From an uncultured Bacilli bacterium (GTDB lineage Bacteria; Bacillota_I; Bacilli_A; RF39; UBA660): a DNA stretch of 45,795 bases. The position numbers and the translations under genes are program-made. Within the stretch, counting starts at the first letter, position 1, and every line of letters begins with the position of its first letter. The notes beneath the pieces were generated by a model. The model saw only the letters and a program-made list of their open reading frames with translations, searched no databases and was not told the origin of the DNA. Location: assembly GCA_947588925.1 (NCBI GenBank), contig CANQAT010000003.1, positions 1 to 45,795 on the forward strand, given 5' to 3'. Of this stretch, positions 1 through 35,126 are shown piece by piece.

Positions 1-1637
1 AGGGATTTACATTAGTAGAGTTACTAGCAGTAATATTAATATTATCATTTATAGCAATAATAGCAGTACCAATAGTAATAAATATAATAACAGAAGCTAA
101 AGAAAGAAGTTATGTATTAAGTATTAAAAGCTATGTAAGAGCAGTAGAACAATCTATATATAATGAAAATTTAAATAGGGAGTTTAATCCTACTGAATGT
201 ATAATAAATAGTAGCGGTAATATGGTCTGTGATGGAGAAAATTTAGTTATTAATGTAGATGGAAATAAACCGATTAGTGGAGTTATATATGTAAAAGACA
301 AGAAGATAACTAAAGTACTAAATATAGAGTACAGAAATTTAAAAAACTATATTACAAAAAATTATTTAGATAATGAATATATTATAACAGATGAGTATAT
401 ACCAATACCAAAATTATATAAGGGATTAACACCTGTGATATATAAAGTTGACCACTGGGAAGTAGCAGATATAACAGGTAATTGGTATAATTATTCTAAT
501 CAAGAGTGGGCAAATGCGGTTATATTAGAAAAAGAAACAGAAAAAAATGTGGGAGATACATTAGATATAGAAAAAGAAGTAAGGGCAATGTTAGTATGGA
601 TACCAAGATATTCATATACAATAGGAAATACATACGGAATTAGGTTAGAAGGAGGCGGGATTCCTTCTGAGAAAACCCCTGGGGCTATAGATATAAAATT
701 TGTGAGTATTACTACAAAAGATATTAATATACCAACATATGAAGGTAATAATCCTAAAAATTGGTACACACATCCTGCCTTTACATTTGGTGGTGAAGAA
801 CTCTCAGGATTATGGGTAGGAAAATTTGAAGCAAGTCATGTTCTTGGACAGAAAATATTAGATTGTGTCAATGAAGAATGTAATGAGGCAGATAACATAA
901 GAATATTGCCAAATGTATCTGCACTAAGAAACAATAATATATCAAGTATGTTTTATGTATCAAGGTCAATGTCAAGAGAAAATAATTCATTTGGACTAGA
1001 TAGAAACGAAGTTAATACGCATTTGATTAAAAATAGTGAATGGGGAGCAGTAGCTTATTTATCTCAAAGCACATATGGGAAATATGGTAATAAAATTTAT
1101 AGTGATACTAATAAGGCGGTATATCATAATAATTCAAAAGACTTTATAACAGGAAGTAGTAATGGTACCCCGGATTTTATAAATGATTATACAAGTAGTT
1201 GCGATTATAGTGATATTTTAGATAGAGGAAATGGTACAGGATATTGTGGTGCGGGAGCCTCTACGACAGGAAATATCACAGGTATATATGATATGAATGG
1301 TGGGGCTAGTGAATTTACAATGGCAAATTATAATAAAAAAACGAATAAAGATGGCTTTGCTTCCTCCTTCTTTCTTGATGATTCTAACGAAAAATATTAT
1401 GATTTATATTTAGATAAAAATATTACTTCTGCCTGTGATAAATATGGATGTTACGGACATGGTTTAACAGAAGTTTATAAATGGTATGGAAGCTTTATGG
1501 CTAATTTTTCTGATGATTTTGTTTGGCATATAAGGGGCGGTATGTATGATGATAATGGTGGAATATTTAACTCAAATAATGATTATGGGGCAGGAGATTG
1601 GGATGATAAACCAGTTCTTAGAGTTGTAATAAGTTAA
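1..1637 (+). CDS. Type IV prepilin N-terminal motif fused to a C-type-lectin/FGE-like domain; 5' end cut by the window edge
   Basis: The frame is open from position 3 and reads GFTLVELLAVILILSFIAIIAVPIV..., continuing into the ORF-track protein that starts at 222. It shares the motifs WANAV, MxVWIPRY, HPxFT, WVGKFE, KNSEWGAVAYLS, ASTTGNxxGIYDMxGG and RGG...RVV with 5938-7521. Confidence 0.85.
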   Translation, partial: GFTLVELLAVILILSFIAIIAVPIVINIITEAKERSYVLSIKSYVRAVEQSIYNENLNREFNPTECIINSSGNMVCDGENLVINVDGNKPISGVIYVKDKKITKVLNIEYRNLKNYITKNYLDNEYIITDEYIPIPKLYKGLTPVIYKVDHWEVADITGNWYNYSNQEWANAVILEKETEKNVGDTLDIEKEVRAMLVWIPRYSYTIGNTYGIRLEGGGIPSEKTPGAIDIKFVSITTKDINIPTYEGNNPKNWYTHPAFTFGGEELSGLWVGKFEASHVLGQKILDCVNEECNEADNIRILPNVSALRNNNISSMFYVSRSMSRENNSFGLDRNEVNTHLIKNSEWGAVAYLSQSTYGKYGNKIYSDTNKAVYHNNSKDFITGSSNGTPDFINDYTSSCDYSDILDRGNGTGYCGAGASTTGNITGIYDMNGGASEFTMANYNKKTNKDGFASSFFLDDSNEKYYDLYLDKNITSACDKYGCYGHGLTEVYKWYGSFMANFSDDFVWHIRGGMYDDNGGIFNSNNDYGAGDWDDKPVLRVVIS

Positions 1638-1667
1638 AAAACGTATTTAAAATATTACGTTTTTTTG
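1636..1667 (+). terminator. Intrinsic terminator
   Basis: AAAAAACGTA...TACGTTTTTT inverted repeat followed by a T-run, right at the stop codon. Confidence 0.6.
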
Positions 1668-1689
1668 ATATACTAATATCGGTGGTAAT

Positions 1690-2562
1690 ATGGATTTAAT
1701 AATAGGCTCACATGTATCGTTTAATAGTAGTGAACAACTTTTAGGAAGTGTTAAAGAAACACTAGGATATGGCGCTACTACATTCATGTTTTATACAGGA
1801 GCTCCTCAAAATACTGTAAGGGTGCCAATAAATTTAGAACTTACAAAAGAGGCTTTAATTCTTATGAGTGAAAATAATATAGATATTAAAAATGTAGTTG
1901 TGCACGCACCATATATAATTAATCTTGCAAATTCTAATAATTTTGATTTCAATGTTAGATTTCTTAAAGAAGAGTTATCAAGAGTAGAAGCTTTGGGTGT
2001 TGATAAACTTGTTTTACACCCCGGAAGTCACGTTAATTTAGGAGTAGATGTAGGAATTAAAAACATAGTAGATTCTCTTAATATGGCATTAGATGATGAT
2101 ACAAAAGTTACGATATGCCTTGAGACTATGGCAGGTAAAGGAACTGAACTAGGCAAATCTTTTGATGAGATAAAAAAAATTATAGATGGAGTAAAACTAA
2201 AAGATAAGATTGGTGTATGCATGGATACTTGTCACTTAAACGACGCAGGTTATGATTTAAAAGATTTTGATACTATATTAGATGAGTTTGATAAGATAGT
2301 AGGTCTTAAATACTTAAAAGTAATACATATAAACGATTCTAAAAATTTAATAAGTACACATAAAGATAGACACGAGAATATTGGATTTGGTACTATTGGA
2401 TTTGATACATTAATAAATATTATTTATAACGATAGATTAAAAGGAATTCCAAAGATACTTGAAACTCCTTATGTAGAGAAATACCCTCCATATAAATACG
2501 AAATAGAAATGATAAGAAATAAAAAATTTAATCCAAATTTAAAAGAAGATATATTAAAATAA
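1690..2562 (+). CDS. nfo: Endonuclease IV (deoxyribonuclease IV)
   Basis: Motifs IGSHVS, HAPYIINLAN, HPGSH, LETMAGKG, DTCH, HINDSK, DRHENIG, ILETP. Confidence 0.95.
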   Translation: MDLIIGSHVSFNSSEQLLGSVKETLGYGATTFMFYTGAPQNTVRVPINLELTKEALILMSENNIDIKNVVVHAPYIINLANSNNFDFNVRFLKEELSRVEALGVDKLVLHPGSHVNLGVDVGIKNIVDSLNMALDDDTKVTICLETMAGKGTELGKSFDEIKKIIDGVKLKDKIGVCMDTCHLNDAGYDLKDFDTILDEFDKIVGLKYLKVIHINDSKNLISTHKDRHENIGFGTIGFDTLINIIYNDRLKGIPKILETPYVEKYPPYKYEIEMIRNKKFNPNLKEDILK

Positions 2563-2814
2563 ATAACCTTTATATCTTTTCTTATAGTATAAAACTAAAT
2601 TTTTAATCTTTATAAAATCATCTTTGTTTATGTGACTTTCTAAATCGTTTAAATATTTAGTCTCATCTTTAAGAATATCTTGATAATTATTTTTAACTAA
2701 ATTAAGTAAGTATTCAAGTTCATCATTATTTAGATGTATATCGTTTTTAATACCAAAATCATTTAACTTATTTATATCGAGTAAATCTATATAATTTCCA
2801 ATTAGACTTTTCAT
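2554..2814 (-). CDS. Small protein, probably DUF2624/YqfT-like
   Basis: 86-aa ORF from the ATG at 2814, preceded by GGTGA. Convergent with nfo, as yqfT is in Bacillus. The family call rests on size and synteny. Confidence 0.55.
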   Translation of the reverse strand: MKSLIGNYIDLLDINKLNDFGIKNDIHLNNDELEYLLNLVKNNYQDILKDETKYLNDLESHINKDDFIKIKNLVLYYKKRYKGYLF

Positions 2815-2884
2815 ATATTCACCATTATAATATATGATTAAATAATATAATAATGAGTAAAATAAATTGTGGGTGATAAAAATC

Positions 2885-34136: not shown

Positions 34137-34167
34137 TATACTGTAGGTGAGGTAAGGTGGTGAGAAA

Positions 34168-34575
34168 ATGAGAAATAAAGGTTTTACACTTATAGAATTA
34201 TTAGCAGTAATAGTAATACTTGCAATAATTGCATTAATCGCAACACCAATCATACTAGGAATTATAAATGACGCAAGAACAGAGGCAAAGAAACGTTCTG
34301 CAGAACTTGCTTATTCAGGTGTAGAGTACGCAATTACATCATATATGTTTGAACATAGTGGTAACGTTCCAGGGTCAGTAGCTGATTTAAAAGATCACTT
34401 TAAAGCAGACAATGTTACTTTTGATTCTTCAAATGGAAAAATAACAGATAAAGCAGGAACTGAATTATGTACAGTATCATATGAAAATGGAGCTGAAGGT
34501 AAACAAGCTGCTTTCAAAGTAACATGTGGAGACTTAATGGAAACAAAGCTTATTACTGTTGGAACTTCAAAATAG
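34168..34575 (+). CDS. Type IV pilin (copy B)
   Basis: Paralogue of A, with an almost identical N-terminal half. Confidence 0.92.
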   Translation: MRNKGFTLIELLAVIVILAIIALIATPIILGIINDARTEAKKRSAELAYSGVEYAITSYMFEHSGNVPGSVADLKDHFKADNVTFDSSNGKITDKAGTELCTVSYENGAEGKQAAFKVTCGDLMETKLITVGTSK

Positions 34576-34657
34576 CATCATGAATTAACTATAAAAAAAC
34601 AATACCAAAAATATAAGTAGCAAATAGCTACTTTTTTGATATTACTTTGCAAAGATA

Positions 34658-34687
34658 TTGACAAAAATAGGTAAAATGTGATAAATT
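34658..34687 (+). promoter_or_regulatory. Promoter of pilin C
   Basis: TTGACA-18 nt-TAAATT. Confidence 0.6.
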
Positions 34688-34718
34688 TATATCGTAGGTA
34701 AAGTAAGGTGGTGAAAAA

Positions 34719-35126
34719 ATGAAAAATAAAGGTTTTACACTTATAGAATTATTAGCAGTTATCGTAATACTTGCAATCATTGCATTAATCGCAACACCAA
34801 TCATATTAGGAATAATTAACGACGCAAGAACTGAAGCAAAGAAACGTTCTGCAGAATTAGCATACTCAGGAGTAGAATATGCAATTACATCATATATGTT
34901 TGAACACAGTGGTAACGTCCCAGGATCATTAGCTGATTTAAAAGATCATTTTAAAGCAGATAATGTTACTTTTGATTCTACAAATGGAGAAATAAAAGAT
35001 AAAGCAGGAACTAAACTATGTACAGTATCATATGTACAAGGCACTGAAGGTAAACAAGCTGCTTTCAAAGTAACTTGTGATAAATTGATGGATGAAAAAT
35101 TAATCACAGTAGGTACTTCAAAATAA
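34719..35126 (+). CDS. Type IV pilin (copy C)
   Basis: Paralogue that looks like a mosaic of A and B. Confidence 0.92.
   Translation: MKNKGFTLIELLAVIVILAIIALIATPIILGIINDARTEAKKRSAELAYSGVEYAITSYMFEHSGNVPGSLADLKDHFKADNVTFDSTNGEIKDKAGTKLCTVSYVQGTEGKQAAFKVTCDKLMDEKLITVGTSK

Follow-up and report, generated by a model that had tools for sequence, protein, structure and literature searches.

How does a small bacterial genome come to scatter type IV prepilin genes among its housekeeping genes, and why do some of these genes begin almost identically and then become unrelated? The question is raised by the first 45.8 kb of contig C3 (the window, 45,795 nucleotides (nt), contig CANQAT010000003.1) of assembly GCA_947588925.1 (G000), from an uncultured gut Bacilli bacterium of the RF39 lineage. 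G000 is a short-read metagenome-assembled genome (MAG) of 1.28 Mb in 80 contigs with ~27% GC, 95.55% completeness and 4.09% contamination. C-numbers denote contigs of this assembly, and other G-numbers (G002, G021, G024, G041) genomes of relatives. An earlier note, made from the window alone, had proposed that one pilin anchor is recombined onto exchangeable heads and that variation arises by diversity-generating retroelement (DGR) mutagenesis, poly-G phase variation and gene conversion. From the analysis described here, we consider it fairly probable that the window samples a phase-variable modular pilin family, in which the genes are three-part mosaics served by one machine, with G-tract switching, heads rewritten by DGRs and exchange of modules.

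Results

Two adjacent prepilin genes share an anchor at the DNA level

Gene 5938 (5938-7521, 527 amino acids (aa)) and gene 7804 (7804-9354, 516 aa) encode modular type IV pilins; these and all other window prepilin genes and promoters named below lie on the + strand. The 5938 product scores 33.7 bits with the Pfam N_methyl model and has a weak FGE-sulfatase match. In 7804, an N_methyl match of 32.1 bits is combined with a DUF285 match of 187.8 bits and with LRR_8, corresponding to a DUF285/BspA-like leucine-rich repeat (LRR) head, and the gene contains internal 78-nt repeats. The AlphaFold2 model of 5938 (pLDDT 68.6, pTM 0.69) displays a long alpha-1 helix and a small beta sheet (~aa 1-117; helix 8-58), a linker and a C-type-lectin/FGE-like head. 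Its N-terminus matches solved pilins, including Streptococcus sanguinis PilE1 (8pfb), and structure searches place the head closest to TaqVP (5vf4, E 2.8e-4), Mtd (1yu3) and TvpA (2y3c), all DGR variable proteins, along with FGE-like enzymes. Both genes fit the definition of modular pilins given by Raynaud et al. 2021, a pilin module plus an extra domain.

The part shared by the two genes, the anchor cassette (5938-6049 in the first of them), comprises leader, cleavage site and alpha-1N, ~37 codons in total. Alignment confirmed that the first 112 nt differ at only five positions (nt 5, 36, 63, 66 and 75) and that the genes are unrelated beyond, identity dropping to the ~69% aligner background from nt 113. 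The likeness also reaches ~25-40 nt upstream, into the 5' untranslated region (5'UTR; 80%). The first 56 nt of gene 34168, located far downstream, are indeed identical to those of 5938, with the first difference at nt 57.

The earlier note had named protein constraint plus codon bias as an explanation that would refute its proposal. Observed synonymous differences were therefore compared with the match probability from genome or pilin-body codon usage. For codons 1-37 of 5938 and 7804, 35 of which were comparable, four synonymous differences were observed against 16.4-17.9 expected (p<=1e-5). Codons 1-19 of 5938 and 34168 carried one against 8.5-9.1 expected (p about 1e-4). As a control, anchors of different classes with similar proteins (7804 and C2_26016) had 11 differences against 12.6-13.7 expected (p 0.18-0.33). 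Since the between-class control lies at expectation, protein constraint and codon bias yield no excess identity, and the proposed refutation fails. The low number of synonymous differences, together with identity that runs into the non-coding 5'UTR, indicates that anchor identity within a class reflects shared DNA ancestry (by duplication, recombination or gene conversion) and not protein constraint.

The window is a sample of a large prepilin family

A Pfam scan of 35 open reading frames (ORFs) of the window identified the housekeeping genes for a penicillin-binding protein, EF-P, PolC, three ABC/FtsX fusions, Gpr, Der, SepF, DivIVA and IleRS. Among these lie seven prepilin-type genes, all of which carry the G|FTL[IV]E motif in a motif scan. 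Five reach the N_methyl cut-off (5938-7521, 7804-9354, 33630-34043, 34168-34575 and 34719-35126). The other two remain below it: 3-1637 (20.6 bits), where the contig start cuts the motif, and the divergent 9505-9867. No assembly ATPase, platform protein or prepilin peptidase was found among the 35 ORFs. These results bear out the description of prepilin genes dispersed among housekeeping genes with no pilus machinery in the window.

The genome-wide census that had been suggested revealed a much larger system. N_methyl gave 46 matches in the genome, 41 of them above the Pfam cut-off, and the motif scan likewise gave 46 prepilin ORFs. Of these, 37 encode at least 250 aa, and together they occupy 60.9 kb, or 4.75% of the assembly. 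Contigs start (C3, C30, C61) or end (C52, C40) inside the prepilin cassette, as expected if the repeat breaks the assembly. The true number of prepilin genes is roughly 40-46.

Anchors fall into classes and are combined with different heads

Anchors were clustered over 102 nt counted from the GFT codons at a threshold of at least 90% nt identity. This resulted in classes of 16 (B), eight (A2), four (A1: 5938, 7804, C12 and C36), three (the tandem short pilins) and three genes, plus 12 singletons. The window holds three anchor classes and one divergent gene. The idea of one cassette with swappable heads was thus upheld in one respect, as the same A1 anchor stands before the unrelated lectin-fold head of 5938 and DUF285/LRR head of 7804, but there is not one cassette: at least five anchor classes exist.

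Heads across the genome are of DUF285/LRR, C-type-lectin/FGE-like, DUF6273, ConA-like and unknown type; the three short pilins, candidate major subunits, have none. Those that Pfam names are DUF285/BspA-type LRR, FGE-sulfatase (weak), DUF6273 and Laminin_G_3, and several have no match. The DUF285/BspA-type LRR head is present in 17 of the 35 non-window prepilin genes scanned, in addition to 7804, and the heads are up to 1317 aa long. DUF285 heads occur on anchors B (mostly), A1 and one singleton, lectin-fold heads on B, A1, A2 and singletons, and DUF6273 heads on B and singletons. Conversely, one head family is found on differing anchors in 3-1637, 5938 and C8_5427. The head of 5938 (nt 375-1569 of the gene) is 83.6% identical to that of C8_5427, which has a different anchor and adjoins pilC and pilD.

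The gene at 3-1637, whose 5' end is cut by the contig start, carries a class-B anchor; over ~100 nt, the anchors of 15 other class-B genes match it with 92-99% identity. In comparison with three of them, 1-3 of 32 codons differ synonymously, where 16.6 would be expected. Its head is a paralogue of the 5938 head family, with patches 72-89% identical to 5938, C8_5427, C30_2967 and C37_7445. In the pairs C7/C71, C28/C53 and C32_7692/C2_21086, as in 7804/5938, promoter, 5'UTR and anchor are 88-100% identical and the bodies are at background. Twelve class-B DUF285 genes share a near-identical pilin module of ~110 aa, and three others (3-1637, C53 and C71) depart from the module consensus at codons 28-37. 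The breakpoints accumulate near codon 37, the point at which the classes cease to be homologous. This is what homologous exchange would produce, and such exchange may or may not be frequent at present.

Every complete copy has its own promoter-like site, ribosome binding site and start codon, and the family is therefore not a silent-cassette system. Variation of the pilE/pilS type was rejected, as promoterless, 5'-truncated donor copies are absent among the complete copies.

G tracts occupy the promoter spacer of many prepilin genes

The promoter of 7804 (7739-7766) consists of TTGACA, a run of 16 G (7745-7760) that fills the 16-nt spacer, and TATGAT (11/12 consensus). Another possible -10 box (TAGAAT) follows 5 nt beyond the first. 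The promoter of 5938 (5878-5906; TTGACA, 17 nt, TAAAAT, with TG before the -10 box) has the same 11/12 consensus and no G tract. The genome contains 18 G/C runs of at least 8 nt and one run of 7. All 18 long runs are located at prepilin genes or at their type of promoter. Ten precede a prepilin ATG by 39-44 nt, three stand at contig ends where the start of a prepilin can still be seen, another four, truncated at contig ends, have the same upstream promoter sequence, and one (G9) lies in the coding region of the C25 prepilin leader. In the remaining 17, TTGACA (once TTGACG) stands directly or one base before the run and a TG-extended -10 box follows. The lengths are 11, 11, 12, 13, 13, 13, 14, 14, 16, 18, 18, 19, 19 and 20, plus three truncated runs, and otherwise near-identical promoters carry differing tracts of 11 to 20 G. 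Two promoters (C2_21086 and C32_7692) have interrupted G runs. Homopolymers of 11-20 G are generally unstable by mutation. ON and OFF states were not called from spacer length because alternative -10 boxes exist.

The combination of TTGACA and at least ten G was found in five of 27 genus genomes (13, 8, 3, 2 and 1 copies), and the reversed-pattern control gave 0. Poly-G phase variation had been proposed in the earlier note. The tract inside the 7804 promoter is present, the design is family-wide, at 17 places, and the tracts may switch.

A prepilin gene of another kind is obtained by joining C25:1-344 to C6:33677-35103. It has an unusually long leader with the G9 inside the coding region, a lectin-fold head and a VR-like end (variable region, VR), and it may switch by frameshift at G9.

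The short pilins are mosaics of each other

Three short pilin genes lie in tandem: A (33630-34043, 137 aa, N_methyl 35 bits), a candidate major subunit with a promoter of TTGACA and a TG-extended -10 box, B (34168-34575, 135 aa), which shares its first 56 nt with 5938, and C (34719-35126, 135 aa). B and C are also above the N_methyl cut-off, and all three have strong promoter-like sites of their own. Along the A/B/C alignment the more similar pair changes in the order AC, AB, BC, AC, the 78 informative sites falling into 36 runs (shuffling gives p about 1e-4), and the A/C block at the 3' end extends into the terminator region. This mosaic pattern supports the proposed gene conversion among major pilins and carries the signature expected of patchwise exchange among neighbours.

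Prepilin heads as targets of DGRs

The 3' end of 5938 (7385-7500) resembles a DGR-type VR, being GC-rich (57.8% compared to 32.6% elsewhere in the gene). Between 5938, C8_5427 and C30_2967, likeness is 91-98% in the core of the head but only 47-76% in two patches, in which the varying codons are NNC/NNT. Compared with the template repeat (TR) of G021, the 3' end of 5938 has 30 mismatches, 20 of them at template adenines. The 3' end of 3-1637 is without such a signature (34.5% GC; 11 of 46 mismatches to the G021 template at adenines).

Complete cassettes were found in relatives. In G002, the order is a prepilin with a DUF6273 head (3' VR), a 192-aa accessory ORF that has no Pfam match, the TR and the reverse transcriptase (RT), and 17 of 20 TR/VR mismatches are at TR adenines. 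In G021, a prepilin with a lectin-fold head (VR), closely resembling that of 5938, is followed by the TR, a 120-aa ORF and an RT with the motif IGNYTSQ; here 25 of 36 mismatches are at adenines. Both cassettes have the parts and the adenine-specific differences of DGRs, and both targets begin with the prepilin motif. G000 itself encodes on C66 one DGR-like RT of 351 aa that is 77% identical to the G002 RT (RVT_1 49.6 bits; 61.6 bits with the group II model, whose cut-off is 300). About 230 nt upstream of it, an AAC/AAT-rich partial TR is truncated where the contig ends. Of the four other genus genomes with a close RT homologue, three have such a break as well, at ~250-1100 nt upstream of the RT. 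An RT on C11 was rejected as a DGR part, being a group II intron maturase (437 bits). These data argue that DGR diversification of prepilin heads is real in the genus.

A VR-like fragment was also noticed between two prepilin genes at C29:15280-15400. The 286-aa C29_16740 therefore probably represents the first half of a pilin gene with a lectin head that has been disrupted.

Pilus machinery and distribution in the genus

Absence of pilus machinery from the whole genome would have spoken against the proposal. One gene each was found outside the window for a PilB/GspE-type ATPase (C42:9181-10623), PilC/GspF (C8:1557-3317) and the Peptidase_A24 prepilin peptidase PilD (C8:784-1560), so that this refutation fails as well; the search for pilT, which had been named together with them, gave nothing over the cut-off. 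An ATPase on C1 was rejected as PilT, being VirB11/TadA-like. A TnpB (IS200/IS605-type) fragment (C8:29-757) is the immediate neighbour of the genes for prepilin peptidase and PilC.

The genome also contains a Tad-like locus (C8:23500-29700) with a TadA-type ATPase, a MinD/CpaE-like ATPase and two T2SSF-domain ORFs, and a gene for a 64-aa Flp-like pilin (C6:32449-32643), and may thus make a second kind of pilus. Sortases are encoded as well.

All 24 same-genus genomes examined, of 0.9-1.6 Mb, have 10-72 N_methyl matches. Among 16 genomes of other families, 14 have 0-7, the exceptions having 15 and 23. The prepilin expansion is genus-wide. The relatives are labelled as uncultured Bacilli, Tenericutes or Clostridia MAGs and come from rabbit, mouse and human gut.

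The efp locus and other features of the window

Downstream of 7804 lies a small divergent pilin-like gene (9505-9867, 120 aa; N_methyl 16.6-17.1 bits, below the cut-off). A homologue of it is located downstream of efp in 12 of the 20 relatives' stretches examined. In none of these 20 do two large pilin genes separate efp from the small gene, and 5938 and 7804 must therefore have been gained here recently. The small gene is part of an efp-polC block (window 9505-11876) conserved in many genus members, together with an 82-aa ORF and a 582-aa charged, coiled-coil-like protein that has no Pfam match. In G041 and G024, it is extended to 351-377 aa by an extra C-terminal domain.

Three paralogous fusions of an ABC ATPase with an FtsX-type permease are encoded at 20046-22544, 22694-25210 and 29531-32122. 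The first two are 88-96% identical across several 300-nt stretches and less so elsewhere, so that segments may be exchanged in this family too. The two copies of a direct repeat of 219 nt (38472-38690 and 40006-40224; 98% identical) surround a gene for a YhcG/DUF1016 PDDEXK nuclease (38903-39907) on the opposite strand, and part of a NUDIX gene is duplicated there too (38206-38268 and 38711-38773). The repeat with the YhcG/DUF1016 gene looks like an insertion with duplicated flanks. Finally, a repeat of ~190 nt at 45609-45788 recurs at C66:1-192 and in at least 11 other contigs, 88-97% identical and often near contig ends. None of the Rfam families matched in the window, this repeat included.

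Discussion

We propose that each prepilin gene of this genome would be built from three exchangeable parts: a promoter and 5'UTR, in which a poly-G tract is present or absent, an anchor of ~37 codons that encodes the class III signal peptide and alpha-1N, and a body or head. One PilB-PilC-PilD machine would process all prepilins. The short pilins would form the filament and the large modular pilins would be displayed on it as adhesins. Slipped-strand changes of the G tracts at ~17 promoters would shift the -35/-10 spacing and thereby lead to a stochastic choice of adhesins. Lectin-fold and DUF6273 heads would be rewritten, now or recently, by DGRs, and homologous exchange, both via the 5' cassettes that the genes have in common and between the tandem pilins, would reshuffle the parts over evolutionary time. 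That switching, swapping and mutagenesis are ongoing we infer from the letters of the genome.

Several observations weigh against this proposal. The count of 46 genes may be inflated by the C12 and C36 prepilin genes, near-duplicates that are 96-100% alike, by the 4.09% contamination and by half-genes at contig ends such as those of C25 and C6. As the assembly was made from short reads, the lengths of its G tracts are unreliable, and ON lengths are unreadable from the sequence, as the two candidate -10 boxes of 7804 illustrate. A promoter for each gene means that head swapping is unneeded for expression. The putative filament must take in proteins of 500-1300 aa. No ATPase of the PilT family exceeds its cut-off in the genome, and the PilM match is only weak.

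Further points concern the retroelements. DGR mutagenesis, as proposed in the earlier note, stands in so far as 5938 ends in a VR signature and relatives carry intact DGRs on prepilin heads, but no other DGR component lies in the window, and no matching TR or RT of that type, i.e. the G021 type, was found in the G000 assembly. The only lectin-type template is a decayed copy at C6:33208-33306, ~370 nt past a lectin-head gene and with no RT there; as working TR of this adjacent gene it was rejected for too many non-adenine differences. It is therefore possible that the VR of 5938 is a fossil and that DGR diversification at this gene lies in the past and not in the present. A self-BLAST of the genome (at least 60 nt, at least eight mismatches, at least 80% at one base), which misses short or truncated templates, gave no adenine-biased TR/VR pair among 6421 high-scoring segment pairs. 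No cognate VR of the C66 template was found: with adenines freed, the only matches were C2:43582-43629 and C19:11384-11431, which were rejected because they have 5-6 non-adenine mismatches in 48 nt. Of the 192-aa ORF of the G002 cassette only a remnant exists in G000, after C2_44646.

One alternative, to which we give a rather low probability, is a static family of paralogues. Here, heads were replaced long ago, the 5' likeness stems from recent duplication and selection at the nucleotide level (translation start, mRNA), and G tracts and VR ends are relics. The decay of the lectin-type DGR and the complete genes with promoters of their own are in line with it, and so are the two promoters with interrupted, presumably fixed, G tracts. 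Read-level variation was not obtained: seven sequencing runs were found, each as Logan contigs, and among the short contigs of X1, X2, X3 and X5 listed for window positions 1-12000, none spans 7745-7760 or a whole cassette. Joints and differing letters among these contigs are best explained as paralogues at the 88% threshold. A static family would, however, have to keep unstable tracts of 11-20 G at one promoter position in 17 places of a genome of 27% GC, with lengths that vary between near-identical promoters. Nor does it readily account for non-coding and synonymous identity that stops sharply at module borders, for an efp locus whose gene content differs in 20 of 20 relatives, or for the retention of an intact RT ORF with a template.

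The remaining explanations touch on what the proteins are and on whether the genes are real. The large proteins might not be pilus subunits, the class III signal serving solely for export or membrane anchoring. Cleaved by the prepilin peptidase, they would then act as single membrane or wall adhesins or in a short pseudopilus, with the layers of variation unchanged. The absence of a detectable PilT and the weak PilM fit this well, as do heads of up to 1317 aa and a single PilB/PilC set for 46 substrates. On the other side, the model of 5938 has a full pilin module before the linker, as in the modular pilins shown to occur in filaments (PMC8179133). In addition, the three short pilins with strong promoters are available for the shaft, and the class-B genes share a conserved pilin module of ~110 aa. 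We judge this explanation improbable. Repeated cassettes could also have misled the assembler into chimeric joins, so that anchor/head pairings and some copies are unreal. The data are those of a short-read MAG of 80 contigs with contamination, independent unitigs end at the cassette, and C12 and C36 are near-duplicates. However, 5938 and 7804 are flanked by unique sequence within a contig of 45.8 kb, and their five differing sites leave exact repeats of under ~50 nt. Where identity is longer, in class B, the assembler broke contigs instead of joining them, and the same architectures are present in relatives assembled by others. We regard an artefact of this kind as very improbable and retain the phase-variable modular pilin family as our reading.

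Each layer of this family has relatives among known systems. In porA and opc of Neisseria meningitidis, a poly-G tract in the promoter spacer mediates phase variation. Here too a G run lies between -35 and -10, and slippage would alter spacing and promoter strength. The differences are that ~17 paralogous promoters of one family are involved, that the genome is of Gram-positive type and that tract variation is predicted from sequence. The Vlp proteins of Mycoplasma hyorhinis form a multigene lipoprotein family in which a promoter-spacer homopolymer is an on/off switch for each gene. A reduced genome of the Bacilli lineage, a conserved block of promoter, 5'UTR and signal before divergent surface regions, and the promoter-spacer homopolymer are common to both. 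The family described here has a prepilin signal with alpha-1 in place of the lipoprotein signal of Vlp, poly-G in place of poly-A, folded adhesin heads, and a genome with cell-wall genes. Functionally, the mycoplasma variable-lipoprotein family comes closest to it. Antigenic variation of the Neisseria pilin relies on silent, promoterless pilS cassettes and a single expression locus, pilE. Conserved 5' and variable 3' parts of pilins and non-reciprocal exchange among copies are similar, whereas silent promoterless cassettes and a single expression locus are not found here. With TaqVP (5vf4), TvpA (2y3c) and Mtd (1yu3), 5938 shares the predicted fold of its head and a GC-rich VR with NNC/NNT codons, and relatives have cassettes of target, TR and RT. 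Unlike the known DGR variable proteins, the scaffold is a type IV prepilin, and the 5938-type cassette is decayed or unassembled in G000.

The modular pilins of S. sanguinis, PilB with a vWA module and PilC with a lectin module (Raynaud et al. 2021, PMC8179133), are the precedent for the architecture. Both systems combine a class III N-terminal pilin module, a linker and an adhesive module that is not pilus-specific, both have tandem short major pilins, and both belong to monoderm bacteria. S. sanguinis has two such genes in one operon, whereas here ~46 are dispersed and have shared 5' cassettes, G tracts in promoters and DGR-type heads, the filaments being predicted from the genes. DGR-diversified type V pilus adhesins have been reported in Bacteroides (bioRxiv 10.1101/2024.11.15.621889), a G-type pilin domain appears as only a rare DGR target in PMC11661182, and for uncultured gut Firmicutes with small genomes a link between their pilins and effects on host immunity has been reported (PMC11680825). 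Literature joining diversity-generating retroelements with type IV pilin was not found, nor was any joining RFN20 with pilin. For DUF285 with pilin, the papers listed concern Lactococcus surface proteins only, and the passages checked on RF39 and type IV pili do not describe the present system. Each layer thus has a precedent; what is new is that the layers meet on a single scaffold and at such a scale, with ~46 genes in a minimal genome and across the genus, with the qualification that supplements (Dataset S1, PMC8179133) may list related LRR- or lectin-type modular pilins.

As a wider and more tentative proposal, which we hold as possible rather than probable, the organism would be a wall-bearing relative of the mollicutes with pilus-based combinatorial surface variation. 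One machine would display a stochastic subset of ~40 modular adhesins, chosen by poly-G switches and diversified by DGR hypermutation and module exchange, as a genus-wide pilin counterpart of the mycoplasma variable lipoproteins. If this is true, almost 5% of a minimal gut genome would be devoted to variable adhesins on one pilus machine, three textbook mechanisms of variation would be united on one protein scaffold, and the concept of modular pilins would be widened from single adhesins to a switchable library. Attachment, be it to host mucus, food particles or other microbes, would then be the main selective problem of this lineage.

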